Counted from the first letter of the stretch, positions 19,063-39,991 are shown. The stretch: DNA of 64,000 nucleotides from an uncultured Gemmatimonadales bacterium (GCA_963711915.1 CAVQGA010000022.1:232943-296942), one strand, 5' to 3'. Notes: generated by a model from the sequence alone, not told the origin. A program made the numbers and translations.

Positions 19063-19073
19063 ACGAGCCCTGT

Positions 19074-20267
19074 CTATTGGTGAGCGCGGAGGAAGGCGAC
19101 GAGCGACTTGGCCTCGTCGGGCGTGACACCCAGGTTGGGCATGAGCACGCCCTGCTTCATCGCCTGCGGATTCTGGATCCACCGGGCGAGCGTCTCGTCG
19201 GTATTCTTGAAGCTGCCCGCCCCGATGTACGAGCGCGCGCCGACGTTGGCGAGGTTGGGGCCGATCATCCCCTTGGGCGCGTCCACGGCCACCAGCGAGT
19301 GGCACCCGACGCAGCCCTTGGCCATGAACAGCTTCTCTCCGGCGGCGTAGGCGGGGTCCTGGGGTGGCGCGGCGGCTGCCGCCTTCGCGGCTGCCGCCTT
19401 GGCGGAGTCGGCCGCGGCCTTGGGCGCCTTGTCCCCGGCAGCCGGTCCCTGGGCCGTGGGTGCGACCGCACCCGCGCTGGCCGTCCGGACGGAGTCGGCC
19501 GGCGCCGCCGACGCGGCGGCCGCGGGCTTGGCGGCGAGCGTCTGCATGTGCGCCACCCAGGCCTGGAACTCCTCGGGCGTCTGCGCCTTCACCCGGAAGG
19601 CCATGCGCCCGTGCTGGATGCCGCAGAACTCGGCGCACTGGCCGGGATACTCGCCCGCCGTCTTGGCCTGAAACCAGAGCCGGGTTTCCCGGTTCGGGAA
19701 CACGTCCCGCTTGCCGGCGAACCGCGGCGGCCAGAAGCTGTGCACCACGTCCGCCGTCCCCATCCGGAGCGAGACCGTCTGGCCCACCGGAATGTGGATC
19801 TCGTTGGCGGTGGTGAGGTGGAGGTCCGGATAGCGGAACTCCCACCACCACTGGTGGCCCACCACCTGGACGTTGAGCACGTCGCCGGTGGGAATGGCCG
19901 CCGTCTGGAAGATCCCGCGCACCGTGGGCACGGCGATCGCGGCCAGGATCAGCGCCGGGATCACGGTCCACACGATCTCCACCGTGGTGTTGCCGTGTAC
20001 CTGTCGCGGCTCGGCGTCGTCCGGCTTGCCCCGGAACCGGAAGACGGCGTAGAGCAGCGCCCCCTCGACCAGGATGAAGACACCCAGGGCCCAATAGAAC
20101 GTCGTCGTCTGGATGTCGTCGCCGATCTTGGCGAAATCCGACAGCGGCCGCAGGGCCGTCTGCGGGTAGTGCTCGGGGCTGCACGCGGCCGCCAGCAGCA
20201 CGAGCAGCGGGAGCACGAAAGCCCACCGGCGAAGGCTCCGGAGAGCAGCGGTCCGAAGGAGGAGCAT
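19074..20267 (-). CDS. ctaC: cytochrome c oxidase subunit II with C-terminal cytochrome c domain (caa3 type)
   Basis: CuA site VVHSFW...CAEFCGIQHGRM. A long Ala/Lys/Pro linker is followed by the heme c motif CVGCH. Confidence 0.9.
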   Translation of the reverse strand: MLLLRTAALRSLRRWAFVLPLLVLLAAACSPEHYPQTALRPLSDFAKIGDDIQTTTFYWALGVFILVEGALLYAVFRFRGKPDDAEPRQVHGNTTVEIVWTVIPALILAAIAVPTVRGIFQTAAIPTGDVLNVQVVGHQWWWEFRYPDLHLTTANEIHIPVGQTVSLRMGTADVVHSFWPPRFAGKRDVFPNRETRLWFQAKTAGEYPGQCAEFCGIQHGRMAFRVKAQTPEEFQAWVAHMQTLAAKPAAAASAAPADSVRTASAGAVAPTAQGPAAGDKAPKAAADSAKAAAAKAAAAAPPQDPAYAAGEKLFMAKGCVGCHSLVAVDAPKGMIGPNLANVGARSYIGAGSFKNTDETLARWIQNPQAMKQGVLMPNLGVTPDEAKSLVAFLRAHQ

Positions 20268-23360: not shown

Positions 23361-25232
23361 TCACCGGCCGCCGGTCAGCGCCCGCTCGTAGGCGGCCAGA
23401 ATGTGTTCGCGGCCGATCATGCCGAGCAATCGGCGCCCGCGGCCCTCGATCACCGGCAAGGCGGAGACGCCCCGCACTCCCATCCGCCTGGTGGCCTCGA
23501 GCAGGGAGTCGGACGGCGTCACGGTCTCGGTCGGCTCCGCCACATCCGCAGCGACGAGCGCCGCCTCCGGGTGCAGGTCATCGCGGGCCAGGCGGTCGAG
23601 GTCGGCCATCGTCACGACGCCGAGCAGGGCGCCATCACGGCTCACGACGGGGAACGCCGTCTGCACGCCCGGCCGGAAATGGCGCAGGAGTGTGGCCAGC
23701 GGTGCATCGGCCCGGAACAAGAGCGGCGCGCGCTCGTAGGCGTCGCGCACGCAGAGGTCGGTGAGCAGCGTCCGGTCGGCGCCGTGCTCGATCTGTTCCC
23801 CCCGCCGCCGGAGCCAGCCACTGTAGAGCGAGTCGGGCTCGAGCCGGCGGGCGATCTGGTGACAGATGACCGTCGTGAGCATCAGCGGTAGCACGATCGC
23901 GTAGTCGTTCGTCATCTCGAACACGATCAGGATTCCGGTGATCGGCGCGTTCGTCGCCCCGGCTACCAGCGCCCCCATTCCCACCAGCGCGTACGCCCCC
24001 GGGTGGATGTGGAGCGTCGGGAAGAGCTCGCGCAGCCCGACGCCGAAAGCGCCGCCCGTAGCCGCGCCGATGTAGAGCGAGGGCGAGAACAGCCCGCCGG
24101 AGCCGCCGGTCGTGAGCGTCAGCGAGGTCGCGAGAATCTTGCCGATCGCCAGCAGCAGGAGATAGTACCACGCCATGCGCCCGAAGACGTCCAGATGGAC
24201 AGAAAGGTGGCCGTAGCCCACCAGGATTCCGCGCGAGAGATAGACCATCGCCCCGACGAGCGCCCCGCCGAGCCACGGCAAGAGGGCGGCCGACACCGGT
24301 AGCCGACGGGTCCAGTCGTCCATCCGGGAGTAGGTCCAGATGAAGAGCGCCGAGGCCAGGCCGGTGACTGCTCCGAGCAGGGGATAGAAGAGGAAGACCT
24401 CGCGCGCCAGCGTATAGCCGTACTCGACAGGGATCGGAAAGGCGGGGTGGTTGCCGAATACCGCCCGGGAGACCACCGCGGCGAGCACGCTGCTCACGAC
24501 GACCGCGGAGAACGCGCCGGCCGCGAAGGAGCCGAGGATCTCCTCCAGGGCGAAGAACGCCCCGGCCAGCGGGGCGTTGAACGCGGCCGAGATCGCGGCA
24601 GCCGCGCCCGCGCCGACCAGCGTGGAGACTCGGCCGGACTCGAAGCGAAAGATCGCGCCGAGCCAGGAGCCGAAGGCGGACCCCAGCACCGTGACCGGCC
24701 CCTCGCTTCCCGCCGAGCCCCCGGCGCCGATCGTGACCGCGCTCGCCGCCGTCCGCGCGAGCGCCGGCCGCGCGGGAATCCGGCCCCGGCGCCGGGCCAC
24801 GGCGAGCTGCACATCCGGCACGTTGAGCCCGTCGTGTCCCTGTCCGAACCGCCGCATGATGGCCCACGCCGCCGCGAACCCCGCGGCGGTCACCAGCGGC
24901 CGATAGGCCAGGAAATCGGAACGGCTAAGGAAGGTCCCCGGCCAGCGGTAGAACACCGTATAGGCCGCGTCGATCAGCTTGTAGAATCCCACCACGCCGA
25001 GCGCCGCAGCTACCCCGACGGCCACGGCGAACGCCAGAAGAATGGCATTCTCGCTCAGCCCGAGCCCATTGAACCAGTCCACGAACCGGCCCCACATCCC
25101 GCGCGCGGCCACGACCGGCCGGCCCACCACGACGATGGCCCGGCGCCGGGCGGAGCGCGCGTGGCGCCACGTGGTTCCGGCGGTGCCCCAGAGCCGAAGC
25201 AGCCGCCGACGGCTGCGGAAGGACAGCGGCAT
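23361..25232 (-). CDS. ClC family voltage-gated chloride channel/antiporter with C-terminal CBS pair
   Basis: GAGGSAGSEGP, GGSGGLFSPSL and GIL(I)VFEMT motifs. CBS-like C terminus. An alternative ATG at 25097 (MWGRF...) is plausible. Confidence 0.85.
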   Translation of the reverse strand: MPLSFRSRRRLLRLWGTAGTTWRHARSARRRAIVVVGRPVVAARGMWGRFVDWFNGLGLSENAILLAFAVAVGVAAALGVVGFYKLIDAAYTVFYRWPGTFLSRSDFLAYRPLVTAAGFAAAWAIMRRFGQGHDGLNVPDVQLAVARRRGRIPARPALARTAASAVTIGAGGSAGSEGPVTVLGSAFGSWLGAIFRFESGRVSTLVGAGAAAAISAAFNAPLAGAFFALEEILGSFAAGAFSAVVVSSVLAAVVSRAVFGNHPAFPIPVEYGYTLAREVFLFYPLLGAVTGLASALFIWTYSRMDDWTRRLPVSAALLPWLGGALVGAMVYLSRGILVGYGHLSVHLDVFGRMAWYYLLLLAIGKILATSLTLTTGGSGGLFSPSLYIGAATGGAFGVGLRELFPTLHIHPGAYALVGMGALVAGATNAPITGILIVFEMTNDYAIVLPLMLTTVICHQIARRLEPDSLYSGWLRRRGEQIEHGADRTLLTDLCVRDAYERAPLLFRADAPLATLLRHFRPGVQTAFPVVSRDGALLGVVTMADLDRLARDDLHPEAALVAADVAEPTETVTPSDSLLEATRRMGVRGVSALPVIEGRGRRLLGMIGREHILAAYERALTGGR

Positions 25233-25274
25233 CGGCGAATTCTAGCCGGATCAAGCCGCGCGCAGAGGCCAGCT

Positions 25275-25303
25275 TTGCGGCCTCCACTGCCGGGGGGTAT
25301 ACT
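25275..25303 (+). promoter_or_regulatory. candidate sigma70-type promoter for the rsb-like operon (TTGCGG-N17-TATACT)
   Basis: Hexamers at 25275-25280 and 25298-25303 with a 17-nt spacer, about 115 nt upstream of the GTG start at 25421. Confidence 0.4.
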
Positions 25304-25420
25304 CCAGCGGCTTACCGATGGCGAAGGCCGTTGCCGCCGCGGTTCCACCCCGTTCGTTTCGGCTCGCCCGACCCCGCCGAAGAGCCCGACCCGCCCCTTT
25401 GGCCCTGAGAGGAAACCCCC

Positions 25421-26290
25421 GTGCCAGCCGACCGCCCGAGCCGCCTTCCCGACATCCTGCGCAAGCATGAAAGCCAGCTGCTCACCGACTGGCTGCGGGA
25501 ACAGCAGACCAACTTGGGACGCCGTCGGGATATGCTCTCCGACCGCGAGCTCGAGGCCCAGTCTCGCGAGCTGCTCGGCCTGCTGCGCACGGCCGTCCAG
25601 ACGGGCTCACCCGATGGGGTCCGGTCCGCGCCGGAGTGGGCCCCCGTGCGGGACATGCTTGGCGGCGTCTCCCGGAGCCGCGGGCTCCAGGGCTTCACGC
25701 CCGCCGAGACGGCCGGCTTCGTGTTCTCGCTCCGGGGGCCGCTCTCGCTCAAGATCCGGGACGAGCTTGGCGCCGATTCGAACCAGCTGTTCGAGGAGCT
25801 CCGGCAGACCGGCGACATGATCGACCGGCTCGGGCTCTACACCACGGAGGTGTTCCAGAAGAGCCGCGAAGACGTCATCCAGCGCCAGCAGCAGGACATG
25901 CTCGAGCTGTCCACGCCGGTCGTGAAACTGTGGGAAGGCGTGCTCGCCCTACCGATGATCGGCACCCTCGACAGCTCGCGGACCCAGGTCGTGATGGAGT
26001 CCCTGCTCCAGCGAATCGTCGAGACCGGCGCCCAGGTCGCCATCCTCGACATCACCGGCGTCCCGACCGTGGATACCCTCACCGCCCAGCACCTCATCAA
26101 GACGGTTACCGCCGCCCGGCTCATGGGGGCCGACTGCATCATCAGCGGCATCCGGCCGCAGATCGCGCAGACGATCGTGCATCTGGGCGTCGACCTCGGC
26201 GACGTCGTCACCAAGGCCACGCTCGCCGACGCGTTCGCCGTGGCGATGAAGCGGCTCGGCATGGCGGTCGTGCGCTCGACCGCGGGCTGA
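25421..26290 (+). CDS. rsbR: stressosome scaffold protein RsbR-like (RsbRD_N-type sensor domain + STAS)
   Basis: N-terminal helical domain (ILRKHESQLLTDWL...). C-terminal STAS with ILDITGVPTVDT and IISGIRPQIAQTIVHLG, as in Bacillus RsbR paralogues. Confidence 0.8.
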   Translation: MPADRPSRLPDILRKHESQLLTDWLREQQTNLGRRRDMLSDRELEAQSRELLGLLRTAVQTGSPDGVRSAPEWAPVRDMLGGVSRSRGLQGFTPAETAGFVFSLRGPLSLKIRDELGADSNQLFEELRQTGDMIDRLGLYTTEVFQKSREDVIQRQQQDMLELSTPVVKLWEGVLALPMIGTLDSSRTQVVMESLLQRIVETGAQVAILDITGVPTVDTLTAQHLIKTVTAARLMGADCIISGIRPQIAQTIVHLGVDLGDVVTKATLADAFAVAMKRLGMAVVRSTAG

Positions 26291-26300
26291 GGGCCCCACC

Positions 26301-26696
26301 GTGGACCGAATCCCGATTCTCAAGATGGGCGACCTCCTCCTGGTGACGATTCAGGTGGACATGCACGACCAGCTCGCCCTGACCCTGCAGGACGACCTCA
26401 CCGACCGGATCTCGCGCACCGGCGCCAAGGGCGTGCTGATCGACATCAGCTCGCTCGAGGTCGTCGACTCGTTCATCGGGCGGATGCTGGCCAACATCGC
26501 CGGCATGGCCCGGGTGCTCGATGCGACCACGGTCGTCGTCGGCATGCAGCCGGCGGTGGCGATCACGCTCGTCGAGCTCGGCCTGTCTCTGCCTGGCGTG
26601 CGCACGGCGCTCAACGTGGAGCGCGGCATGGCCCTGCTGCGCGGCGCCGTCAACGGCCCACCGGGCGGGACGGGCGATGCACGTTCAGCGGAATGA
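26301..26696 (+). CDS. rsbS: stressosome STAS protein RsbS-like
   Basis: Single STAS domain, IPILKMGDLLLVTIQ...LIDISSLEVVDS...VVVGMQPAVAITLVELG. Confidence 0.8.
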   Translation: MDRIPILKMGDLLLVTIQVDMHDQLALTLQDDLTDRISRTGAKGVLIDISSLEVVDSFIGRMLANIAGMARVLDATTVVVGMQPAVAITLVELGLSLPGVRTALNVERGMALLRGAVNGPPGGTGDARSAE

Positions 26697-27081
26697 GTCG
26701 GTCGAGATCCGGCTCTCGAACGACATCGTGCGGGTGCGCCAAGTGGTACGGGAGTGGTCGATCGAGGCCGGGTTCACGCTGGTGGACCAGACCAAGATGG
26801 TCACTGCCGCGAGCGAGCTGGCCCGCAACACGCTCGAGCACGGCGGAGGCGGCGTGGCGCGGGTCGAGCTTCTACAGGACGGCGTGCGCCGCGGCGTCCG
26901 GCTCGTGTGCGAGGACCACGGGCCGGGCATCCCGGACGTGGAGCTCGCGCTCCGCGACGGCTACACCAGCCGGAACGGCCTCGGTCTCGGCCTGGGCGGC
27001 GCCCGCCGGCTGGTGAACGAGTTCGCGCTCGACTCCCGCCCGGGTGAGGGCACCAGGGTTACCATCACGCGGTGGAAGTAG
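26677..27081 (+). CDS. rsbT: RsbT-like serine kinase / switch protein (HATPase_c_2)
   Basis: ASELARNTLEHGGGG...EDHGPGIPD...GLGLGLGGARRL. Overlaps rsbS by 20 nt. Confidence 0.8.
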   Translation: MHVQRNESVEIRLSNDIVRVRQVVREWSIEAGFTLVDQTKMVTAASELARNTLEHGGGGVARVELLQDGVRRGVRLVCEDHGPGIPDVELALRDGYTSRNGLGLGLGGARRLVNEFALDSRPGEGTRVTITRWK

Positions 27082-27090
27082 CGGGCGCTC

Positions 27091-28095
27091 GTGGAGCCGA
27101 CGACCCTGACCCTGCCGGTGCAGGACGCCACCCAGATCGGCGCGGCCCGCCGGCTGGCCGTCACCGCGGCGGGGGCGCTCGGCATTTCAGAGGTCGAGGC
27201 CGGCGAGGTCGCCCTGGTGGCGACCGAACTCGCCACCAACCTGGTGCGGCACGGCGGCGGTGGCGAGCTGCTCGTCCGTCCGTTGACCCGCGGCGGCGAT
27301 GCGGGCCTCGAGATCGTCGCGCTCGATCGCGGTCCCGGCATGGCCGATGTCGGCGAAGCGCTGCGCGACGGGTACTCTACGGCCGGCACCAAAGGCGCAG
27401 GCTTGGGGGCGGTGCGTCGCTTGTCGGACAGGTTCGAAGTGTTCTCGACACCGGGCGTGGGCACCGCGGTCGTCGCCCGGCTCGCCTTCGCCGATGGGGC
27501 TGGTCCAGGCCGGCTGGTGAACGGCGTTTCCGTGGCCAAGCCGGGCGAGACCGCCTGTGGCGACGCCTGGTGCTGGACGGCGACGACGGACGGCTGGACC
27601 GTCGTCGTCGCCGACGGACTCGGCCACGGCCCGGACGCCGCCGTGGCCGCCTCGGAGGCGGTGCGGGTATTCCTTCGGTACCAGGGGGCCGGACTCCCCG
27701 ACATCGTTTCCGCGATGCATGCCGCCATGCGCCATACCCGGGGCGCGGCGGTTGGACTCGCCAGGCTGAGCCTGGGACGCCGGGAGCTCGCCTTCGCGGG
27801 CGTCGGAAACATCAGCGGGACGATCCTCGCGACCGGCAGGAGCCGCAGCCTGGTCTCCCTGCCTGGCATCGTGGGGCACGAATGCCGGAAGATCCAGGAA
27901 TTTCTCTATCCGTGGACCGAGCAGGCGATTGTGGTATTGTACTCGGACGGGTTGCAGAGCCGCTGGACCCTGGACCGTTACCCGGTGCTCGCCTCGCGGG
28001 ATCCCGCGCTGGTGGCCGCCCTGCTCTACCGGGATTTCGCTCGCGGACGCGACGACGTGACCGTGGTCGTCGGCCGCGGAGAGGTCGTTTCGTGA
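27091..28095 (+). CDS. fusion of an RsbT/RsbW-like HATPase_c_2 domain and a PP2C (SpoIIE-type) phosphatase
   Basis: N-terminal ATELATNLVRHGGGG...LDRGPGM...GAGLGAVRRL. C-terminal GDAW...VADGLGHGPDAA...LYSDGL, which are PP2C metal-binding motifs. Confidence 0.8.
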   Translation: MEPTTLTLPVQDATQIGAARRLAVTAAGALGISEVEAGEVALVATELATNLVRHGGGGELLVRPLTRGGDAGLEIVALDRGPGMADVGEALRDGYSTAGTKGAGLGAVRRLSDRFEVFSTPGVGTAVVARLAFADGAGPGRLVNGVSVAKPGETACGDAWCWTATTDGWTVVVADGLGHGPDAAVAASEAVRVFLRYQGAGLPDIVSAMHAAMRHTRGAAVGLARLSLGRRELAFAGVGNISGTILATGRSRSLVSLPGIVGHECRKIQEFLYPWTEQAIVVLYSDGLQSRWTLDRYPVLASRDPALVAALLYRDFARGRDDVTVVVGRGEVVS

Positions 28096-29474
28096 CTGCC
28101 CCGATCCTCACGACCGAGCTTCGCACCGAGCACGACGTCGTGCTCGCACGGCAGCGCGCGCGGCAGGTGGCGCGGCTGCTGGGCTTCGACGCCCAGGAGC
28201 AGACCCGGATCGCCACTGCCGTGTCGGAGGTCGCGCGCAACGCCCACCAGTACGCCAAGGGCGGCCGGGTGGTGTTCGAGCTCGCCTCGGCGCCCCCCAG
28301 ACTCGATATCACTATCAGCGACGCCGGTCCCGGCATCGGCCGCCTGCCCGATGTGCTCGAGGGGCGCTATCGCTCCTCCACCGGCCTCGGGCTCGGACTG
28401 CTCGCCGCCCGCCGCCTGTCCGACCTGTTCGACGCCGCCTCGGAGCCGGGCAGCACGGTCATCCGGCTCGGCAAGCTGCTCCCGCGCGGCACCTCCGCCG
28501 ACTCGGAGACGGTCGCCCGGGTGAGCGCCGCGCTCGCGCAGCTCGCGCCACACGACCCGATCGCCGAGCTCCGGGAGCAGAACCGGGAGCTGGTCCGGGC
28601 CCTCGACGAGGTGCGCGAGCGGCAGACCGAAGTGGAGCGCCTGAACCAGGAGCTGGCGGAGACCAACCGCGGCGTGATGGCGCTCTACGCCGAGCTGGAC
28701 GAGAAGGCGGCCGACCTGGCCCGCGCCTCGGAGCTCAAGTCGCGCTTTCTGTCGAACATCAGCCACGAGCTCCGCACGCCGCTCAACGCGATCCTCAACA
28801 TCAGCAACCTCCTGCTCGCCCACGTGGACGGTCCGCTCGCCGAGGAGCAGCACCGCCAGGTGGGCTTCATCCGGAGCGCCGCCACCAACTTGTCCGAGAT
28901 GGTGAACGACCTGCTGGACCTGGCCCGGATCGAGGCCGGCCGGAGCGTGGTCCGCACGAGCGCGTTCACTGCGGTCGACCTCTTCGCAGCGCTCCGCGGC
29001 ATGTTCCGCGCGCTGGCGGCGTCGGACGCCGTCGCCGTGGTGGTCGAGGAGCCGGACGGCATCCCTGGACTCGTGACCGACGAGGGCAAGCTGTCGCAGA
29101 TCCTGCGCAACTTCATCGCCAACGCCCTCAAGTTCACCGAGCGCGGCGAGGTCCGGGTGTCCGCGCGGATGGAGCCCGATGGCCGCGTGACGTTTGCAGT
29201 CGCGGACACCGGCATCGGCATCGCGCCGCAGGACCAGGAGCGCATCTTCGAGGAGTTCCACCAGCTCGACAGCGCGCTCCAGCGCCGGTCGACCGGCACG
29301 GGCCTCGGCCTGCCGCTCTCGCGCAGGCTGGCCGAGCTGCTGGGAGGGGGCGTGTCGGTGCAGAGCACGCCGGGTTCGGGCTCGGTGTTCAGCGTGACGA
29401 TCCCGCCCTCGTGGTCTCCGCCGCCGCGCCTCTCGAGTCCGGGCCAGCCGGCCATCGAGGTGCAGCATGCCTGA
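28092..29474 (+). CDS. histidine kinase with N-terminal RsbT/RsbW-like domain, coiled coil, HisKA and HATPase_c
   Basis: N-terminal VSEVARNAHQYAKGG...SDAGPGIG...GLGLGLLAARRL. H-box SNISHELRTPLNAI. G-boxes DTGIGIA and GTGLGLPLS. The GTG start overlaps the upstream stop (GTGA at 28092-28095). Confidence 0.85.
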   Translation: MTAPILTTELRTEHDVVLARQRARQVARLLGFDAQEQTRIATAVSEVARNAHQYAKGGRVVFELASAPPRLDITISDAGPGIGRLPDVLEGRYRSSTGLGLGLLAARRLSDLFDAASEPGSTVIRLGKLLPRGTSADSETVARVSAALAQLAPHDPIAELREQNRELVRALDEVRERQTEVERLNQELAETNRGVMALYAELDEKAADLARASELKSRFLSNISHELRTPLNAILNISNLLLAHVDGPLAEEQHRQVGFIRSAATNLSEMVNDLLDLARIEAGRSVVRTSAFTAVDLFAALRGMFRALAASDAVAVVVEEPDGIPGLVTDEGKLSQILRNFIANALKFTERGEVRVSARMEPDGRVTFAVADTGIGIAPQDQERIFEEFHQLDSALQRRSTGTGLGLPLSRRLAELLGGGVSVQSTPGSGSVFSVTIPPSWSPPPRLSSPGQPAIEVQHA

Positions 29475-31740
29475 GACCGGCCTGACGATCCTGGTCGTGG
29501 ACGACAACGAGGCCGAGCGCTACTACGTGGCGCGGGTGCTCCGGAAGGCGGGCTTCGAGGTCGCCGAGGCCGGCACCGGCCAGGAAGCGCTCGCGCGGGC
29601 GGGCGACGGCCCCGACCTGGTCACCCTGGACGTCCGGCTGCCCGACCTCAGCGGCTTCGAGGTGTGCCGCCGGCTCAAGAGCGACTCCGCGACGCGCGAT
29701 ATTCCGGTCCTGCACATCTCGGCGAGTTACACCACGCCCGACGCCAAGGCCGAAGGGCTCGACGGAGGGGCCGACGGCTACCTCACCCACCCGGTGAACC
29801 CGACCGAGCTCGTCGCCACGGTGCGCTCCCTGCTCCGGGCCCGGGAGGCGGAGGTCCGGGTGCGCGCCGCCGCCCGGGAATGGACCACCACGTTCGACCT
29901 CATCAGCGACGCGGTCTGCCTCACCGGCGCCGACGGCGCGGTCATCCGCTGCAACAACGCGTTCGCCAGGCTGCTCCAGCGTCCGTTCGCGGACGTGATC
30001 GGGTGCCCGCTGGGCACGCTACTGCCTCAGCTCACGCCCGCCGCCGGCACGGCGGCGGGCGTCCCGTCGCACATCCAGATCGCCGACCGGCACTTTCGCG
30101 TGAACGTCGATCCGGGGCCCGCGGTGGGCGCCGGTTCGGCCGTGCGGGCCTGGGTGTTCGGCGACGTGACCGAGCAGGAGCGGCAGCAGGCGGCCGTCCG
30201 GCGCAGCGAGGAGGAGGCGCAGGCGCGGCTGGCCGAGATCGAGGCGGTCTACCGCGCGGCGCCGGTGGGGCTCTGCGTCCTCGACACCCAGCTCCGCTAT
30301 GTGCGCATCAACCAGCGGCTCGCCGAGATCAACGGCCCCTCGGTAGAAGCGCACATAGGACGAACGGTGCGGGAGATCGCCCCCCAGCTGGCCGACTTCA
30401 TCGAACCCAAGCTCCGGGAGCTGCTGGCCACCGGGCATCCGGTGCTGGACCTCGAGCTGCGGGGCGAGACGCCGGCGCAGCCCGGCGTCGAGCACAGCTG
30501 GATTGCGACGTGGTATCCCCTGGCCGCCCCGGACGGACAGATCATCGGCATCAACATCGCGGTGGAGGATGTGACGGAGCGGCGCCAGTTGCAGGATCGG
30601 CTGCTCGAGGCGCAGCGGCTCGAGGCGGTGGGGCGCCTGGCGGGAGGTGTGGCGCACGAGACCAACAACCAGATGACGGTGGTCCTCGGCTGCGCGAACT
30701 TCGCGCTCCGTCACATCAACACGCCCGAGGCGATGCGCTCCGACCTCGAGCAGATCCGGCGCGCCGCCGAGCGCACGGCCGAGATCACCGCCCAGCTCCT
30801 CGCCTTCGGCCGCCGGCAGCACCTCCGGCCCGAGGTGGTGGGGCCGGACGAGGTGCTCGAGCGGCTGCAGCCCGTCCTCGCCCGCACGCTCGGCGACGGC
30901 TCCCTGGTGCTCGGCCTGCAGGCGCAGGCCGAGCAGGTGCGGGCGGACGTCGGGCAGCTCGAGCAGGTGCTGCTCAACCTCACGTTCAACGCGCGCGACG
31001 CGATGCCGGACGGCGGCACGCTCGCCATCCGGACGGCCCCGGTCGTGCTCGACGCTCCGCTTGCCCCGGGACACCCGGCCGACGAGGTCCCCCCTGGCCG
31101 CTACGTTCTCCTCGAGGTGACGGACAGCGGTTACGGCATGGACCCCGCCACGCTCAAGCGCGCCTTCGAGCCGTTCTTCACCACGAAGGGCGTGGGCAAG
31201 GGGACGGGCCTCGGCCTCTCGATGGTGTATGGGTTCGTCAAGCAGAGCGGCGGGTACATCCGCGCCTTCAGCACGCCCGGCCGGGGGACGCGGTTCGAGA
31301 TCTACCTGCCGAGCGTGAGCGCGCTCGAGGTCGCGCTGGAGGACGACGCGCCAGTACGGCAGGTCACGGCTTCGGGCCGTGTCCTGCTGGTGGAGGACGA
31401 TCCGCTCGTGCGCGCGGTGCTCGCGCGGGAGCTGTCGGATCAGGGCTACGTGGTCACCGAGGCGGCGGACGGCCGGACGGCGCTCGAGCTCGCGCGGAGC
31501 GCGGCGAGATCGTTCGACATCGTGGTTACCGACGTCGCCCTCCCCCGCATGGGTGGCCGGGAGCTGGCCGAGCGGCTGGCCGACCTCCCGAAGCCGGTCC
31601 CGGTGCTCTTCATCTCGGGGCATCCCCACGAGCAGGCCGCGGGCCAGCTCGTGGAGACCGGACGGGCGGTGCTCCAGAAGCCGTTCAGCGCCGAGGAGCT
31701 GCTGATTCGGGTGGAGGGTCTGCTACGAGGCGTCCCGTGA
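29467..31740 (+). CDS. hybrid sensor kinase: receiver, 2 PAS-like domains, HisKA, HATPase_c, receiver
   Basis: ILVVDDNEAE...LDVRLPDLSG receiver. H-box GGVAHETNNQMTVV. DSGYGMD and GTGLGLS. C-terminal receiver VLLVEDDP...TDVALPRMGG. Overlaps the upstream gene by 8 nt. Confidence 0.85.
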   Translation: MPETGLTILVVDDNEAERYYVARVLRKAGFEVAEAGTGQEALARAGDGPDLVTLDVRLPDLSGFEVCRRLKSDSATRDIPVLHISASYTTPDAKAEGLDGGADGYLTHPVNPTELVATVRSLLRAREAEVRVRAAAREWTTTFDLISDAVCLTGADGAVIRCNNAFARLLQRPFADVIGCPLGTLLPQLTPAAGTAAGVPSHIQIADRHFRVNVDPGPAVGAGSAVRAWVFGDVTEQERQQAAVRRSEEEAQARLAEIEAVYRAAPVGLCVLDTQLRYVRINQRLAEINGPSVEAHIGRTVREIAPQLADFIEPKLRELLATGHPVLDLELRGETPAQPGVEHSWIATWYPLAAPDGQIIGINIAVEDVTERRQLQDRLLEAQRLEAVGRLAGGVAHETNNQMTVVLGCANFALRHINTPEAMRSDLEQIRRAAERTAEITAQLLAFGRRQHLRPEVVGPDEVLERLQPVLARTLGDGSLVLGLQAQAEQVRADVGQLEQVLLNLTFNARDAMPDGGTLAIRTAPVVLDAPLAPGHPADEVPPGRYVLLEVTDSGYGMDPATLKRAFEPFFTTKGVGKGTGLGLSMVYGFVKQSGGYIRAFSTPGRGTRFEIYLPSVSALEVALEDDAPVRQVTASGRVLLVEDDPLVRAVLARELSDQGYVVTEAADGRTALELARSAARSFDIVVTDVALPRMGGRELAERLADLPKPVPVLFISGHPHEQAAGQLVETGRAVLQKPFSAEELLIRVEGLLRGVP

Positions 31741-32139
31741 GGAGCGGCGACCGAGCCGCGCCTGCTCGTGCGGGGCCGCGAAGTCCTCCTCGCCGGGTGG
31801 CCGCACCAGCAGATCGAAGGCGAGGAACAGCATCTTGGAGAACGGGAAGAAGATGAACGGGAACACCACCATCAGGACGATGGTGCTGATCTGAAACAGG
31901 TCCCACGGCGGGTCGGGCCAGGTCGCGAGCAGGAAGCCCGCGACCCAGACGCTGAAGACGGTCTCGACCGCCATCAGGTTCACGAAGTAGGCCCCCAGCC
32001 AGTAGCCCTGCTCCCCCCGCTCGAGCCCCAGCCCACACACCGGACACGCCGGCAGCAGGCGCGACCAGCTGGTGAAGATCGGCCCGCCCCCGCAGTGCGG
32101 GCACCTCAGGCGCAGGGCGCGCGCGAAGTGGGACAGCAT
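31723..32139 (-). CDS. DUF983 family membrane protein with N-terminal CxxC...CxxC zinc ribbon
   Basis: RCPHCGGGPIF...CPVCGL followed by two TM helices. ATG at 32139. Confidence 0.7.
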   Translation of the reverse strand: MLSHFARALRLRCPHCGGGPIFTSWSRLLPACPVCGLGLERGEQGYWLGAYFVNLMAVETVFSVWVAGFLLATWPDPPWDLFQISTIVLMVVFPFIFFPFSKMLFLAFDLLVRPPGEEDFAAPHEQARLGRRSSRDAS

Positions 32140-32237
32140 ATGCGTGGACGGTAGTGATCCGTCCCGCTTCGCGCGAGGCTCCAGATCACACCCGCCGGCG
32201 GAAGTGGCTGCTCGCGGGCAGCTCCCGCGATGCGGAC

Positions 32238-32345
32238 TCAGCTCTTGACCAGCTCGACCCGGCGGTTGCTCTGCCGGCCTTCGAGCGTGTCGTTGGAGGC
32301 GGAGGGCTTGGTCTGCCCGAGGCTCTTCGCATGTACTTGCCATCG
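32238..32345 (-). pseudogene. remnant of an OmpA-family C-terminal (peptidoglycan-binding) domain
   Basis: The reverse strand reads ...AKSLGQTKPSASNDTLEGRQSNRRVELVKS*, matching the OmpA_C tail pattern (G.G...P.A.N.T.EGR..NRRVE). There is no intact upstream reading frame or start. Confidence 0.35.
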
Positions 32346-32458
32346 CCCATGACGCGGGCGCGCCGCACCCGGTCTGGGGAGTGGTCGGCCGTCTCACGCG
32401 CCCATTCAGCCCGGCCTGGGGGTTCCGGAACCCCGGTATCGGCTAACGTAGGAGATTG

Positions 32459-33325
32459 ATGATCGAAGGCCGTTTCGCCGGCCACGACGGAGCGCCGCTC
32501 TTCCGCCGGACGTGGCCGGCCACCGGCCGGCCGCGGGGCGTGCTCGTCAACGTCCACGGGCTCGGCGATCACTCGGGACTCTATCCCACGGTGGCCGAGC
32601 ACTTCACGGCGCGGGGCTTCGCGGTGCACGCGCCCGACCTGCGCGGCAACGGGCGCTCGCCTGGCGCGCGGGGACACGTGGACTCGTGGGGCGAGTACCG
32701 GGAGGACCTCCGTCGCTTCCTGGACGTGGTGCGCGCCGAGGAGGCCGGCCTTCCACTCTTCCTCCTGGGTCACAGCCTCGGCGGCCTCGTCGTCCTCGAC
32801 TACGCCATGCGCTACGCCGAGGGACTCCGCGGCGTCATCGCGTCGGCGCCGCCGCTCGGGCGCCTCGGTGTGCCGGCGACGCTGCTGCTCCTCGGCAGGG
32901 TCGTCTCTCGCGTGTGGCCCGGCTTCTCGCTCGAGACCGGCATGGACCTCTCCGGCCTGGCCCGCGATCCGGCGATCGCGGCCGAGGTGCTGGCGGACCC
33001 GCGCTTCCATCGCCGGGGCTCCGCCCGGCTCTCGACCGAGGTGCAGGCCACGATCGCGCGGGTCCAGGCGGACGCGCATCGGTTTCCGCTGCCGTTGCTC
33101 GTGCTGCACGGCTCGGCGGACCGGATGGTCCCGCCGGACGGGAGCCGGGAGTTCGCGGCCCGGGCACGCGGGCGCGACGTGACGTTCATCGAGTATGAGG
33201 GGGCCTACCACGCGCTGTTCGCCGATCAAGGACGGGAACGGGTGCTGGCGGATGTCGAGGAGTGGATACGGGCGCGCATGAGCCCGCCCCGCGGCACTGG
33301 CCACGGCAGCGGGCCCGCAAGCTAG
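32459..33325 (+). CDS. alpha/beta hydrolase (lysophospholipase / monoacylglycerol lipase-like)
   Basis: VHGLGDHSG and the nucleophile elbow GHSLGG. C-terminal LHGSADRMV...YHALF. RBS GGAGA is upstream; an alternative TTG start is at 32456. Confidence 0.8.
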   Translation: MIEGRFAGHDGAPLFRRTWPATGRPRGVLVNVHGLGDHSGLYPTVAEHFTARGFAVHAPDLRGNGRSPGARGHVDSWGEYREDLRRFLDVVRAEEAGLPLFLLGHSLGGLVVLDYAMRYAEGLRGVIASAPPLGRLGVPATLLLLGRVVSRVWPGFSLETGMDLSGLARDPAIAAEVLADPRFHRRGSARLSTEVQATIARVQADAHRFPLPLLVLHGSADRMVPPDGSREFAARARGRDVTFIEYEGAYHALFADQGRERVLADVEEWIRARMSPPRGTGHGSGPAS

Positions 33326-34942: not shown

Positions 34943-37111
34943 CTACGACGGGTGGGGGGTGGAGCGGCTGATTCCCAGCTTGTCCATTCGGTGGCGCAGA
35001 GTGTTCGGGTGGAGGTTCAGCATTCTTGCCGCTCCCTTCGGACCCTCGACCACGCCGGCGGTCTGCTTCAAGGCAGCGAGGATGTGGTCACGCTCGACCT
35101 CTTTCAGAGTGGCGAACGTGGATGCCGCCGGCTTGGCCGCCTGCCCGGATTCAGCCGCGCCTCGGGACGGCAGGCGGAACTCGCCGGTGGACAGCATGGA
35201 GGCCAGATCGGGCTCCGACCCGAGCATGGGGGTCCGGGCCAGGATGACCGCCCGCTCCATGACGTTTTGGAGCTCCCGCACGTTGCCGGGCCACGCGTAG
35301 CCGGCGAGCTGGTCCATGGCGTCCTGGGAGATCCCCTCCATGTGCTTGCCGAGCTTCTTGGCGTAGTGGAACAGGAAAAACATCGCCAGCTGTGGGATAT
35401 CGGAGCGTCGGTCGCGCAGGGGCGGCACCTCGAGCGGGAACACGTTCAATCGGTAGAACAGGTCGGAGCGAAACCCGCCGGTCGCGACCGCCTCCTTCAG
35501 TCGGCGGTTCGTCGCCGCGATCACCCGCACGTCCACGCGCAGCGGCCGGCTGGTGCCGACGGGCTCGAACTCGTGTTCCTGAAGTACACGCAGCAGCTTG
35601 ACCTGCGTCTCCAACGGCAGCTCTCCGACTTCGTCAAGGAAGATGGTGCCCCCGTCGGCGAGCTCGAACCGGCCGATGCGGCGCTCGATCGCGCCCGTGA
35701 ACGCCCCCTTCACGTGACCGAAGAGCTCGCTCTCCACCAGGCCCGCCGAGATGGCGCTGCAGTTCACCTTCACCAGGGGCCGGTTCTTGCGGGGGCTCCG
35801 GGCGTGTATCGCCCGCGCGATCAATTCCTTCCCGGTCCCCGTCTCCCCGGAGATGAGCACCGTGGAGTCGGTCGGGGCGACCTGTTCGAGCTTCCGGAGC
35901 ACCGCCAACAGCGCTGGGCTGCCGCCGACGACCTCTTCGAAATTGTGCTCGGTGCGGATCTCCTCTTGAAGGTACAGGTTCTCTTTTTCCAGCCTGGCCT
36001 TCAACGCCGCGATTTCTTCATACGACTGCATGTTCTCCACGGCCAGCGCGATCTGATTCGCGAGCTCCTGCAACAGCTCCATATCCTCTTCCGCATACTG
36101 GCCCCTCGTCCTGCTCGCGACGTTGAGCGTCCCGATGCTTCTCCCTCCGACGATCAACGGCACCAGGCAGTCGGCCTTGAAGCCCTCGGCCACGAGACGA
36201 CGATCGTTCGGATACTGCTGCTCGTTCTCGAGATCGCGTCGGAGCACAGGGCACTGCTCATCGAAGACCCGGGCCGCGATCGTTTCCGTGCGGTGGAACT
36301 CCAGCCCCGCCCGGAAATATTCGGAGGGTAGCGGGCCTTCCATGGCGAGGTAACGGAACGTTTCTCTCGCCGGGTTGTACAGCGTAAAGGCTGCTCGGTC
36401 GAAGGGGACGATGCGGCGCAGCGTCTCGGACACGGAGTGAAGTAGGGCGTCCCGGGTGAGGTGGGTGATGATGGCGTTGTTGATCTCGAGCAGCGTGCGA
36501 TAGCGCTCCGCCGTGCGCTCCACCCTCATGTTGAGCGCGCCGATCTCCTCGTACGACGTCATGTTGGCGACCGCGAGCGCGACCTGGTTCGCGACGTCCC
36601 GCAGGAACTCCGCATCCGCTTCGGAGTATTGATTCCGGTTCTCACTCGCGATGTTGAGCGTGCCGAGGCTCTTGCCGCCGAGAATCAAGGGGACCACACA
36701 GAACGATCGGACCCCTTCAGCCAGGAGCCGACGCTCGACCGGAGTTTGCCACTCGGTTTCCAGATCGTGACGAAGGAGAGGTCGCTGCTGGTCGAAGACC
36801 CGGCCCGAGTGACTGTCGTCGCGGGCCATCTCCGCTCCGACCTGGAAATAGTCCGATGACCACTGCCGTGACACCGCGAGGATGCGGAGGGTGTCTCTCG
36901 CAGGGTCATACAGCGTCAAGGCCGCCCGATATATGGGGAGCACCCGCTGCAAGGCCTCGCAGATCGCGTTGAGGAGGCCCTCCTGGGTGAGATTGGTGAT
37001 GATGGCGTTGTTGATCTCGAGGAGAGTGCGCCACCGCTCCTCGCTTCTGCGCGGCGCCTCCGGCGCGTCACCGCCGTGCCCTTCCCCCGGCTGGTCCACA
37101 TCACCCGGCAT
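34943..37111 (-). CDS. sigma54-dependent transcriptional activator with two N-terminal GAF domains (FhlA-like architecture)
   Basis: Duplicated GAF-like segments ([12 protein letters not shown]... occurs twice). AAA+ motifs [14 protein letters not shown] and the ESELFGH loop. C-terminal Fis-type HTH. ATG at 37111. Confidence 0.9.
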
Positions 37112-37479
37112 GACGACTCCCCGGCTGCTCACACGCGAAAGCAGATGCCACCGGTGGTTGTGGGAGCCAGGCCGGATTTCTGGCGCAGCGTCCCGACGGT
37201 GAACTGCACGCTTCCACGGTGAGTACCGCAAAGTCTGCTGCCTGAGTACCACGACGTCAAGAATTACAAGGGACTTACGGAGGCGAACCTGGTCTCGGGG
37301 TCGCTCGGTTTCCGGGCTCGACCGCGCTCTGATCGATGCTGGGAGGGTGCACGGAACATGGCGTGGGGTCACCCCGGAAGGGACGGCGGCTACGCCAGGC
37401 GCCAGGTACCGCGCCACCTGGCCGAGGGTGTGGTGAAGCGGTGTGGGGCGTGCCCATCTACCAAGCCCGAAAATGCCGA

Positions 37480-37522
37480 TTGACGCCACTGGGCTTCGGT
37501 TTATATTCGGGTACGACGTGCC
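37480..37522 (+). promoter_or_regulatory. strong sigma70-type promoter (TTGACG-N16-TATATT) with abutting imperfect palindrome GGTACGACGTGCC (candidate operator)
   Basis: -35 at 37480-37485 and -10 at 37502-37507. The 13-mer at 37510-37522 pairs at 5 of 6 positions around a central A. It is also flanked by TTCGG...CCGAA (37505-37524). Confidence 0.55.
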
Positions 37523-37548
37523 GAATGGAACCGAACCGCGGAGCCGCC

Positions 37549-37722
37549 ATGCCTTCCTCTCACCCCTGCCGCCCCTCGCTGTCTCCGACACGGTACCTCC
37601 CGGCCCAGCGCGGCTCCGCTCCCGAAACCACGCTCCGCGTCTGCCCCGAATGCGCCAACCCGCTCGTCCGCGCGTCCGGCTGCGTGAGCTGCCGCCACTG
37701 CGGCTGGGCCCGCTGCGGGTGA
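37549..37722 (+). CDS. small zinc-ribbon protein (CPEC...CRHC), 57 aa
   Basis: GGAG lies 5 nt upstream of ATG 37549. C-terminal VCPECANPLVRASGCVSCRHCGW. The stop overlaps the next gene's GTG (GTGA at 37719-37722). An alternative ATG is at 37525. Confidence 0.55.
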   Translation: MPSSHPCRPSLSPTRYLPAQRGSAPETTLRVCPECANPLVRASGCVSCRHCGWARCG

Positions 37723-38750
37723 CGGCCCGGCAGCTCGACCTCCTGCCGTCGTCCGGGACGGCGGAGCCGAGGTGGCAGGTGCTGGACGAGCGCGGTCGCG
37801 GCACCCGGTTTCTCGCGCTCTCGGTGCGGTCGGTGCTCAACACCTCCGCCACGACGGGCATGGGCTTCTGGTCCATCAACCCCTACGTCGGCTGCGAGTT
37901 CGGCTGCACGTACTGCTACGCGCGGGACACCCATCGCTACGCGATGGAGCGGAGTGGCGTCCCGGCCGAGCCGCTGCCGGCGTGGCAGGCGTTCGAGCAG
38001 CGGATTCTGGTCAAGACCGGGGTCGCGGACGTGCTGGCGCGGACGCTCGACCCCTCCCGGCTCGGCGAGCACTCGCTGGTCATCGGCACCGCCACCGATC
38101 CCTACCAGCCCGCTGAGCGGCGGTTCCGGCTCACGCGCCGGGTGCTGGAGGTGCTGCTGCAGCATCGCGGGCTGGCGCTCGGCGTCATCACCAAGTCGCC
38201 GCTCGTGACGCGCGACATCGACCTGCTCGGCCGGCTCGGCGAGCGGCACGAGGTGACGGTCAACATCTCGCTCGCCACGCTGGACCGGCGTCTCGCCCGC
38301 CGGCTCGAGCTCCGCTCGCCGGTGCCGGAGGCGCGGATCCGGGCACTCGGCCGGCTCACCGCCGCGGGCATCCACGCGGGGCTCCTGGTAGCGCCGATCC
38401 TCCCCGGCATCACCGACGACCGCGCGGGGCTCGACCGCCTGATGGGCGCGGCGAAGGAGGCGGGTGCCCGCTACGTGGTCGGGTCGGCGCTCCGGCTCGG
38501 CCCCGCGGCGCGGCAGCGCTTCCTTCCCATGCTCGCCCGGGAGTTTCCGGGGCTCGCCGAGCGCTACGCCCGGCACTACGCCCGGAGCGAGGGCGTGAGC
38601 GCGGCCTACCAGCGCGCGCTGTCGGAACGCCTGCACCAACTGCAACGGCACCATGGCTTCCCGGTGGAGGAAGGCCGCCGCCGGCGGCAGCAGCTCGAAG
38701 GGCGGGAGCACCGGCTGCCGGCGTCGGAGCAGCAGCCGCGGCTGCTGTGA
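37719..38750 (+). CDS. radical SAM protein, Rv2578c / SplB-like (COG1533 DNA repair photolyase family)
   Basis: INPYVGCEFGCTYCYARDTH contains the CxxxCxxC radical SAM cluster in the sequence context typical of this family. Confidence 0.8.
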   Translation: MTARQLDLLPSSGTAEPRWQVLDERGRGTRFLALSVRSVLNTSATTGMGFWSINPYVGCEFGCTYCYARDTHRYAMERSGVPAEPLPAWQAFEQRILVKTGVADVLARTLDPSRLGEHSLVIGTATDPYQPAERRFRLTRRVLEVLLQHRGLALGVITKSPLVTRDIDLLGRLGERHEVTVNISLATLDRRLARRLELRSPVPEARIRALGRLTAAGIHAGLLVAPILPGITDDRAGLDRLMGAAKEAGARYVVGSALRLGPAARQRFLPMLAREFPGLAERYARHYARSEGVSAAYQRALSERLHQLQRHHGFPVEEGRRRRQQLEGREHRLPASEQQPRLL

Positions 38751-39991
38751 TGCGCTCCGTCCTCTTCGTCGACCCGCCCGCCTTCTGCACCACCGTCGAA
38801 GGCCTCGTGGCGCCGGCCCTCCGGACGCGGCCCGTCGCGGTGGCGCCGCCGGGGGCCGACCGCGCCACCATCCTCGCGCTCTCGGCGGAGGCGCGGCTGG
38901 CGGGAATCGAGCGGGGCATGCCGGTGCGGCAGGCGCTCAAGCGCTGTCCCGATCTCGTGCTGCTGCCGCCCAATCCGCAGCTCTACGCCCGGGCCTCGCG
39001 CGCGCTCCACGAGGTGCTCCGGATCTACGCGCCGGTCATCGAGCCTCACGGCTACGGCCACGCCTTCCTCGACCTCACCGGCACCGGGCGGCTCTTCGGC
39101 CCGGCGGTGGACGTGGCCGCGCGAGTGCAGCGCGAGATCCGCGAGCGGCTCCGGCTGCCGGTCTCGGTGGGTGTGGCCGCCAACAAGCTGGTGAGCCAGG
39201 CCGCCACGACGGTGGTCAAGCCCGAGCCGCTGCTCGAGGTGCCGGGTGGCTCGGAGGCGAGCTTCCTCGCGCCCCATCCGCTCGACGTGCTGCCCGAGCT
39301 GCATCCCCGGATGCGGCAGCGGCTCGACGACTATCAGCTCGACCTCATCGGGGAGGTCGCCGCCATCACCGAGAGCGCGCTGTGCGCGGTCTTCGGCGGC
39401 GCGGGGCGCATGCTCCGGGCGCAGGCGCGCGGCATCGATCCGCGTCCGGTGCTGCCGCCCGAGCGGCAGGCCGAGTTCCACGTCGCCCACGCGCTGGCCA
39501 CCGACACCAACGACCTCGGCGTGCTGCACCCGCTGCTCCGGGTGCTCGGCGAGCGGCTCGGCCGCCGGCTCCGCCGGCGCGGGCTCGTGGCGCGGCGGCT
39601 CCGGGTCGCGCTCACCTACGCCGACCACACCGCCGCCACCCGCGCCGTGGCGCTCCGCGGGGCGGCGCTCGACGCCGAGCTGTGGGACGCGGCGCGCCGC
39701 GCGTTCACCCAGGCCAACGCCCGGCGGCTCGCGGTCCGGAGGGTATCGCTCACGCTGGACCGGCTGGAGGAAGCGGAGGGGCAACTGGATCTGTGGGGGA
39801 TGGTCATGGCGGGAGGGGCGGAGACGGGAACAGGCAACGAGCTGCCCGGCGCGGAGTCCGGCTCCGGCCTTGGCGCGGGATTCCCCGCGCGCTCCCGCCC
39901 CCGCGCCCTGCAGCAGGCCCTCGACCGCATCACCACCCGCTACGGCGCGCGCGCGGTCGCCAGCGCGGCCGTGCACGCGCTCACCAGGTGA
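38747..39991 (+). CDS. Y-family DNA polymerase-fold protein lacking catalytic acidic residues (ImuB-like)
   Basis: VLFVDPPAFCTTVE (versus the D-x-D of active DinB/Dpo4) and YGHAFLDLTG (versus SIDEAYLD). VGVAANKLVSQAA is conserved. QLDLWG at 39782-39799 resembles a beta-clamp-binding motif. GTG 38747 / ATG 38750 overlap the upstream stop. Confidence 0.75.
   Translation: MMRSVLFVDPPAFCTTVEGLVAPALRTRPVAVAPPGADRATILALSAEARLAGIERGMPVRQALKRCPDLVLLPPNPQLYARASRALHEVLRIYAPVIEPHGYGHAFLDLTGTGRLFGPAVDVAARVQREIRERLRLPVSVGVAANKLVSQAATTVVKPEPLLEVPGGSEASFLAPHPLDVLPELHPRMRQRLDDYQLDLIGEVAAITESALCAVFGGAGRMLRAQARGIDPRPVLPPERQAEFHVAHALATDTNDLGVLHPLLRVLGERLGRRLRRRGLVARRLRVALTYADHTAATRAVALRGAALDAELWDAARRAFTQANARRLAVRRVSLTLDRLEEAEGQLDLWGMVMAGGAETGTGNELPGAESGSGLGAGFPARSRPRALQQALDRITTRYGARAVASAAVHALTR

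Follow-up and report, generated by a model that had tools for sequence, protein, structure and literature searches.

A widespread stressosome-type cassette with a predicted two-component output and tethered RsbT paralogues in an uncultured Gemmatimonadales bacterium

Stressosome modules of the rsbRSTX type that lack sigmaB and lie beside genes for two-component proteins, cyclic di-GMP enzymes or PP2C phosphatases have been recognised by comparative genomics since 2005 (PMC9237108, PMC4976288), and in Vibrio an rsbRSTX module with a two-component module downstream has been studied experimentally (PMC9237108, PMC10014275). In the earlier descriptions RsbX is a single-domain PP2C, and RsbU_N is the only recognised coupling domain on effectors (PMC9237108); histidine kinases that carry RsbU_N and adjoin stressosome genes have been noted, and the RsbT-RsbU pair is an established case of an effector controlled by way of a coiled-coil linker (PMC12143880). 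In VvD1, the Vibrio effector, RsbU_N was not detected and an interaction with RsbT could not be shown (PMC9237108). Modules of Bacillus, Listeria and Vibrio are among those with observed icosahedral cores (PMC9237108, PMC9237128), and the N-terminus of M. marinum RsbR has poor homology to that of B. subtilis (PMC8115616). The question addressed here is by what route stressosomes signal onward in bacteria other than the Bacillales. The subject is a cassette of six + strand genes, g1 to g6, identified by listing and translating open reading frames (ORFs) at 25421-31740 of a 64,000-nucleotide (nt) stretch of DNA from an uncultured Gemmatimonadales bacterium (GCA_963711915.1, CAVQGA010000022.1:232943-296942), which is referred to below as the window and has a GC content of ~71%. 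It offers a testable alternative to the known arrangements, an effector with its own RsbT domain. A preliminary description of the same DNA had stated that coupling of RsbRST to two-component outputs was already predicted by comparative genomics and studied in a few proteobacteria, as is the case for Vibrio (PMC9237108, PMC10014275).

The cassette very probably consists of a stressosome RsbR-RsbS-RsbT-RsbX (RSTX) module and a phosphorelay. The full statement that we favour, in which the RSTX module has a His-Asp phosphorelay as its output and the two are coupled by tethered RsbT paralogues docking on the STAS core, is put forward tentatively, as a serious possibility. More doubtful, but still quite possible, is its mechanistic centre, namely that the histidine kinase plugs into the stressosome core through a built-in RsbT, that STAS partner switching gates the phosphorelay without a diffusible messenger, and that the phosphatase is targeted in the same manner. 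No mention of an RsbT-like domain fused to RsbX or to an output kinase, and no experimental study of the cassette, was found in the literature searched; for the fusions, the 2005 survey, a 2017 review and the Moorella paper lay outside its scope.

The first three genes and the phosphatase domain of the fourth carry the hallmarks of a stressosome. In g1, an RsbRD_N sensor domain (aa 9-108) is followed by a linker helix and a STAS domain (aa 169-269), and comparison of 68 sequences shows conservation of the RsbR motifs VDT (T219) and IAQT (T251), whose threonines we take to be the equivalents of B. subtilis T171 and T205. The phospho-acceptor Ser57 of RsbS (VVDSF), presumably the counterpart of B. 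subtilis S59, is kept in at least 95% of 75 sequences. RsbS also has the highest median identity across phyla, 77%, followed by RsbT (61%), RsbR (59%) and the g4 family, in which an RsbT-like domain is fused to a PP2C phosphatase (T-PP2C; 47-49%), and such constraint would be expected of a protein that has to fit several partners. For the PP2C domain of g4 the best sequence relatives in the PDB are Moorella MtX (3ZT9, 1e-16) and B. subtilis RsbX (3W40, 1e-9); the motifs GD, DGxGHG, GxGN, SDG and RDD are conserved among the family, and g4 itself has GD, DGLGHG, SDG and RDD. It differs from the single-domain RsbX described so far by its N-terminal RsbT-like domain, which is joined to the phosphatase by a short, non-helical linker. 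The preliminary description had read an RsbR-RsbS-RsbT module followed by a PP2C phosphatase, which the Pfam matches and the MtX and RsbX relatives bear out. It had also taken the phosphatase to be fed by the module; here the PP2C identity stands, and is of the RsbX type, while the direction does not, the domain being more likely a reset (feedback) phosphatase than a fed output.

The cassette contains three small GHKL domains, g3 itself and the N-termini of g4 and g5. They align pairwise at E = 1e-14 to 1e-24, in agreement with an earlier alignment by eye, and score 111, 86 and 80 bits against B. subtilis RsbT compared with 18-30 bits against RsbW, both Bacillus sequences being provisional references; g3, at 111 bits and 43% identity to that RsbT, scores 18 bits with RsbW. 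A neighbour-joining tree of the three domains from 36 cassettes resolves three clean clades, designated g3, XN (the g4 domain) and HN (the g5 domain), with B. subtilis RsbT as sister to the g3 clade, and the sole exception is a mis-assigned match in a locus without rsbT. The phylogeny, which had been suggested as a check, separates the three. Mean identity is 0.44-0.60 inside the clades and 0.25-0.37 across them. Taken together, the tree and the identities indicate that the g4 and g5 domains are old, separately conserved paralogues, not recent duplications; judged by sequence, g3 is the RsbT orthologue, and the g4 and g5 N-domains are RsbT-type, not RsbW-type.

All three families conserve the N-box E/N, the G1 motif DxGxG and the G2 motif GxGxG (~68-83 sequences per family). 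In the g4 N-domain E46/N50, D.G.G and G.GlGA are conserved in 73 sequences, and in that of g5 E46, N50, G79, G81, G98, G100 and G102 are invariant; further invariant Ser and Thr residues of g5 are S95, T97 and T191. Since the ATP-binding motifs are kept throughout, all three GHKL domains are likely able to bind ATP, and the tethered ones look functional rather than like decayed docking stubs. An Arg of helix 1 that aligns with SpoIIAB R20, which we take to be a contact to the STAS partner SpoIIAA, is also kept in all three (R21 in g3, R20/R21 in g4 and R20 in g5).

Gene g5 as a whole (28092-29474, +, 460 aa) places one of these domains in front of a histidine kinase. Its N-terminus matches HATPase_c_2 (3e-15), and no RsbU_N match was found in it by Pfam. 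In an AlphaFold2 (AF2) model with a mean predicted local distance difference test score (pLDDT) of 80.7, the N-domain lies at about 86 or higher throughout and above 93 over most of its length, and the helix of aa 156-242 is unbroken at pLDDT 83-96, running into the DHp helix with His225. The linker carries the conserved motif QN.EL...LN.EL..TNRGVxALYAEL. In a fold search the kinase core superposes on those of GacS, RetS and HK853, with no match beyond the core; no sequence match in the PDB was found for the N-terminal 203 aa, and no solved structure with such an N-terminal arrangement. In g6 Pfam detects two Response_reg domains, PAS_8/PAS, PAS_4, HisKA and HATPase_c, and the architectures given earlier for both proteins (RsbT-like domain, coiled coil and histidine kinase for g5; REC-PAS-PAS-HisKA-HATPase-REC for g6, REC being a receiver domain) are supported by Pfam. 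With an H-box His, HATPase_c and receivers bearing the acceptor Asp, g5 and g6 are, on their motifs, two-component proteins.

The window form of g5 is not the usual one. Among 78 complete homologues, ~45 have 703-732 aa and the layout T-CC-HK-REC-REC (T, RsbT-like domain; CC, coiled coil; HK, histidine kinase), ~17 have 567-620 aa and one REC, five from cyanobacteria have 512-519 aa, and eight have 456-470 aa without REC, these being Gemmatimonadota loci, including the nearest relative of the window locus (L003), and one Holophagales locus. Most homologues carry one or two REC, and the window g5 belongs to a minority, stripped-down form without a receiver, so that any transfer of phosphate to the first REC of g6 would need to occur between molecules. 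In an uncultured Alphaproteobacteria metagenome-assembled genome (MAG; locus L076, ORF from 9001) the homologues of g5 and g6 form one ORF of 1258 aa with the layout T-CC-HK-REC-REC-REC-HK-REC. This is either a natural Rosetta-stone fusion backing a functional link between g5 and g6, or the result of a lost stop codon or a MAG assembly error.

The first 203 aa of g5 (RsbT-like domain and linker) served as the query in homologue searches. A word-indexed search gave 622 relatives, the best 120 of which share 49-74% identity with the query, except for one that is nearly identical but truncated (99% identity, with 57% of the query covered); all but this copy carry HATPase_c_2, most with HisKA. A phmmer search of 1.84 billion representatives gave 349 clusters at E<1e-30 and 2152 at E<1e-10. 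In a scan of one genome per GTDB species, the RsbT-coiled-coil-histidine kinase protein was found in at least 591 species from more than 10 phyla, and the carriers include Gemmatimonadota, Acidobacteriota, Myxococcota, Planctomycetota, Verrucomicrobiota, Nitrospira, Actinomycetota, Spirochaetes, Alpha-, Beta- and Gammaproteobacteria, and Cyanobacteria (Microcoleus, Nostoc, Leptolyngbya), with isolate genomes such as those of Bradyrhizobium tropiciagri and Microcoleus among them. Within the best 150 representative clusters the T-CC module always sits on a histidine kinase core (HisKA or HisKA_2/HWE), sometimes with an inserted PAS domain. A T-CC module on PP2C or GGDEF outputs, considered as a further variant, was not found among these 150 clusters, and actinobacterial PP2C versions that had been supposed to exist were not confirmed and were dropped. 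The T-PP2C protein has at least 7979 clusters (90% identity) at E<1e-10, and is named 'anti-sigma regulatory factor' or 'ATP-binding SpoIIE family protein phosphatase' in the source databases. The best matches to the cassette proteins, at 66-77% identity, point by themselves to a probable member of the Gemmatimonadales as the host.

The gene order is conserved as well. By tblastn of the window proteins on 82 loci, 71 of which have at least 2.8 kb of upstream sequence and were counted, a collinear RsbR-RsbS-RsbT-(T-PP2C)-(T-HK) set lies within 4.5 kb in 69, spanning more than 10 phyla. Gemmatimonadota and Acidobacteriota, for which such a comparison had been suggested, are among the carriers of the kinase protein. 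Directly 3' of the g5 homologue a REC-first gene is found in 54 of 64 loci, most of them encoding REC-(PAS)-HK-(REC) proteins. On a metagenome contig from ENA (L002), independent gene calls and Pfam show the full architecture. The preliminary description had considered the arrangement uncharacterised for this kind of organism; uncharacterised it is in the literature searched, but it is not specific to the organism, the cassette being near-invariant in at least 591 species.

Some of the loci are imperfect. One (L001) has the same gene order with its rsbR, rsbS and T-PP2C genes broken by frameshifts, and in both L001 and L002 two gene calls, of 275-276 aa and then 374-434 aa, take the place of a single g5 homologue. 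These breaks look like assembly frameshift errors, and many protein-database matches are similarly truncated. Complete cassettes with 55-62% identity to the g5 N-domain are also present in MAGs assigned to Bifidobacteriaceae and Propionibacteriaceae, where they lie on short contigs (L004 and L015), a placement that suggests horizontal transfer or mis-binning.

Nothing resembling the classical output was found in the window or as a conserved neighbour in the flanks of the 82 loci. Pfam found no sigma factor, RsbV/W or RsbU_N domain in g1-g6 and 30 further large ORFs of the window, and no anti-sigma factor among these 30, so the earlier statement that none of these lies nearby holds for all 36 ORFs scanned. 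When the flanks of the 82 loci were clustered, no conserved sigma or anti-sigma family emerged; conserved linkage to a sigma factor elsewhere had been named beforehand as the observation that would point to a conventional output. A conserved seventh gene (sigma factor, Hpt or output regulator) was also sought and rejected, the only recurrent flank family being a generic HK/REC one in 20 of the 82 loci. As the clustering gave no conserved extra partner, the cassette appears to be self-contained.

In the reading that we favour, RsbR and RsbS would build a STAS core, and all three RsbT-type domains would bind its STAS subunits, as GHKL Ser kinases of this class do with their STAS partners; binding to a STAS protein is, to our knowledge, how every characterised kinase of the RsbT/GHKL class acts. 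In the resting state a dimeric g5 would have its T-domains docked on the core, and the linker helix would fix the kinase in one signalling state. A signal sensed by RsbRD_N would cause RsbT, and possibly also the tethered domains, to phosphorylate RsbS and RsbR, which would lower their affinity, free the g5 T-domains, shift the register of the linker and switch autophosphorylation of g5. Phosphate would then pass from g5 to the N-terminal REC of g6, which would gate the rest of that protein (PAS inputs, second kinase and C-terminal REC), and the T-domain of g4 would bring the PP2C to the phosphorylated core for reset. Docking is favoured because the class binds STAS proteins, because the ATP-binding motifs and the R20-like Arg are kept, because RsbS is so constrained and because the T-domain is found where the kinase would normally have its sensor. 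The conserved motifs, the conserved Arg and the unusually conserved RsbS likewise make competition of the three RsbT-type domains for the STAS scaffold plausible.

Several points weigh against this reading. The docking of the tethered domains on STAS is purely inferred, and the intact ATP-binding motifs would fit catalysis as well as docking. A free RsbT persists in 69 of the 71 loci, although a pure tethering model gives it no obvious role. The domain tree carries no bootstrap values and contains provisional Bacillus references. As to the end point of the relay, the cassette has no terminal response regulator with an output domain and no Hpt, and none is conserved in the flanks. In one locus (L078) the RsbR-S-T-TX genes are divergent from the T-HK gene, and in Richelia sp. 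(L066) T-PP2C and T-HK are present and R, S and T were not found in the 9 kb upstream; co-transcription is evidently not obligatory, and the 'upstream' and 'downstream' halves are separable.

The retention of free RsbT would be explained if it were itself the messenger. RsbT activates RsbU by binding to its N-domain and linker (PMC12143880), and once freed from the core it might bind the RsbT-like domain and linker of g5 (and g4) in the same way, stiffening the coiled coil and activating the kinase or phosphatase; the tethered domains would then be RsbT receptors that replace RsbU_N, and not STAS binders. Conservation of the g5 linker goes far beyond the demands of a simple coiled coil and hints at a surface for binding, and GHKL anti-sigma kinases such as SpoIIAB dimerise. 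However, a receptor domain alone needs neither invariant ATP-binding motifs nor an Arg like R20 of SpoIIAB, linker stiffening is inapplicable to g4 with its short non-helical linker, and no case is known to us in which RsbT binds a second domain of its own type, so that we consider a diffusing RsbT somewhat unlikely as the link. The same catalytic motifs, intact in every family, together with the invariant S95, T97 and T191 of g5, could instead speak for covalent marks without sequestration: g4, in the manner of SypE, HsbR and Rv1364c, would act both as kinase and as phosphatase and so fix the phosphorylation level of RsbS and RsbR, and g5 would be a dual Ser/Thr and His kinase acting on the core, on itself or on g6. 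Proteins that fuse an RsbW-type kinase to a PP2C and act on one STAS substrate are known (SypE is cited in PMC3999984). Yet it would seem redundant for three kinases and one phosphatase to share two substrates, nothing found points to a phospho-site on g5 or g6, and such enzymes would not exclude docking, since a kinase must bind its STAS substrate; as the whole explanation this is unlikely.

The core itself could also be simpler than supposed, with no megadalton stressosome and with unphosphorylated RsbS (and RsbR) binding the g5 T-domain 1:1, like SpoIIAA and SpoIIAB. Complex formation is not readable from sequence, and no structural study of an RsbRD_N-type RsbR was met in the literature found. 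This is nonetheless quite improbable: in its R/S pair, conserved residues, gene order and RsbX-type phosphatase the cassette agrees with modules that have icosahedral cores (PMC9237108, PMC9237128), and RsbR and RsbS of M. marinum, whether or not this RsbR is of the RsbRD_N type, co-localise in foci (PMC8115616). Lastly, the view is limited to 64 kb of genome, and many bacteria encode unlinked partner-switching proteins, so an RsbU/RsbV/RsbW/sigma set might lie elsewhere, with the adjoining kinases as loosely associated passengers. Such a conventional output is very improbable indeed, given that T-HK and RSTX are collinear across phyla in 69 of 71 loci, that RsbT-type domains are physically fused to the kinase, and that the flanking genes of the 82 loci include no conserved sigma or anti-sigma family.

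The coordinates of the features are collected in Table 1. The genes are tightly packed, with junctions of +10 nt (g1/g2), -20 (g2/g3), +9 (g3/g4), -4 (g4/g5) and -8 (g5/g6). The g4/g5 overlap is a GTGA at 28092-28095, in which the GTG start of g5 lies over the g4 stop codon, and that of g5/g6 is ATGCCTGA at 29467-29474. The packed six-gene set, the 20-nt rsbS/rsbT overlap, the GTGA and the 8-nt overlap had all been given exactly in the preliminary description, the motifs it quoted (LDITGVPTVDT, IDISSLEVVDS, GDAW, ADGLGHG, E(L/V)A(R/T)N, D.GPG and G.GLG) are all found in the sequence, and each of its domain assignments lies above the Pfam gathering score. Its start of the first gene at 25275 proved to be wrong: a TGA in the g1 frame ends at 25408 and the earliest start codon is the GTG at 25421, so that 25275-25420 is intergenic leader. 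A ribosome-binding-like motif, GAGAGGAAA, lies at 25407-25415, just 5' of this GTG. The short junctions support reading the six genes as one operon, as does the absence of any terminator-like site in a simple scan of 25000-32500; a sigma-70 consensus promoter was not found in the same interval either, the scan being uninformative at 71% GC. NCBIfam has no specific family for any of g1-g6.

Table 1. Features of the leader and the six genes in window coordinates
Feature	Position	Strand	Evidence
Leader, intergenic (divergent ClC-channel gene / rsbR)	25233..25420	+	In-frame TGA, promoter scan
g1, RsbR-like co-antagonist, 289 aa	25421..26290	+	Pfam RsbRD_N 1.6e-24, STAS 2e-13
g2, RsbS-like single STAS protein, 131 aa	26301..26696	+	Pfam STAS 4.5e-8
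g3, predicted RsbT orthologue (free GHKL Ser/Thr switch kinase), 134 aa	26677..27081	+	HATPase_c_2 8e-11
g4, N-terminal RsbT-like domain (XN clade)	27091..27495	+	HATPase_c_2 1.5e-13
g4 (334 aa, 27091-28095), C-terminal RsbX-type PP2C	27532..28095	+	SpoIIE 3e-11
g5, N-terminal RsbT-like domain (HN clade)	28092..28478	+	HATPase_c_2 3e-15
g5, single long helix (aa 156-242) from RsbT-like domain to DHp	28557..28817	+	AF2 model
g5, histidine kinase core, HisKA (His225) and HATPase_c	28737..29474	+	Pfam HisKA 2e-18, HATPase_c 1e-38
g6, hybrid kinase REC(D55)-PAS-PAS-HisKA(H397)-HATPase-REC(D689), 757 aa	29467..31740	+	Pfam, key residues

Around the cassette, a CBS-domain ClC channel and a DUF1003 protein are encoded upstream on the opposite strand, and a convergent DUF983 protein and an alpha/beta hydrolase downstream. 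The 3' end of g6 overlaps the DUF983 gene (31723-32397, -) by 18 nt, at 31723-31740. About 3 kb downstream, at 34943-37879 (-), lies a gene for a 978-aa sigma-54 activator with two GAF domains, which is not conserved beside the cassette elsewhere. Other parts of the window hold a 1477-aa hybrid histidine kinase, HAMP-HisKA-HATPase-REC (9048-13481, -), in which Pfam matches nothing over the first ~1030 residues; a caa3-type cytochrome oxidase cluster (15382-20267, -) with CtaG, COX3 and COX2 fused to cytochrome c, opposite which run two short ORFs with a very high GC content at third codon positions (17915-18202 and 18356-18601); and a kdpA-kdpB-kdpC-kdpD potassium-uptake operon including its sensor kinase (42508-50005, +). 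A 456-aa ORF at 38606-39976 (-), with no Pfam match and an unusual codon-position composition (first-position GC 0.89), might encode a low-complexity protein or might not be a gene at all.

If the docking of tethered RsbT domains on the STAS core is true, partner switching would extend from sigma factors and PP2C or GGDEF effectors to the direct control of a histidine kinase, and it would explain thousands of proteins whose sole present label is 'anti-sigma regulatory factor' or 'ATP-binding SpoIIE family protein phosphatase'. The cassette could then be among the commonest stressosome wirings in environmental bacteria and a general answer to how signalling proceeds without sigmaB. Being widespread, strongly conserved, compact and present in isolate genomes, it should make a good experimental system.

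Compared with known systems, the cassette shares with the stressosome of Bacillus and Listeria the R-S-T gene order, the STAS phospho-acceptor motifs, an RsbT-type GHKL kinase and an RsbX-type PP2C. The stressosome of these two genera has an RsbU-RsbV-RsbW-sigmaB output, whereas the cassette has no RsbU_N, RsbV, RsbW or sigma factor; its RsbX follows directly after RsbT and bears an RsbT-like N-domain, its output is a histidine kinase with another such domain, and its sensor is RsbRD_N. Closer in layout is the rsbRSTX module of Vibrio vulnificus with VvD1 and VvD2, which also has a minimal RSTX set without a sigma factor, followed closely by a sensor kinase and a second two-component protein. 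There, however, RsbR has a haem globin sensor, RsbX is a single domain and VvD1 has no recognised RsbT-binding domain, while in the cassette both RsbX and the kinase carry RsbT paralogues. The Moorella diguanylate cyclase MtG and the proteobacterial RsbU_N histidine kinases resemble g5 in being effectors beside RSTX with an N-terminal stressosome-related domain, a helical linker and a dimeric catalytic domain. Their coupling domain is RsbU_N, the receptor of RsbT, whereas that of the cassette is a copy of RsbT itself (HATPase_c_2), so the logic is likely inverted, the effector binding the core directly instead of awaiting free RsbT. SypE, HsbR, Rv1364c and OsaC likewise join a GHKL Ser kinase and a PP2C in one polypeptide in a partner-switching context, but they are RsbW-like, usually with REC, PAS or GAF regulators, and have single soluble STAS targets, in contrast to g4, which combines RsbT-type and RsbX-type domains across a short linker inside a stressosome module. 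As far as the searched literature goes, the cassette would appear to be a stressosome with a two-component output whose novelty lies in its wiring, through tethered RsbT paralogues.

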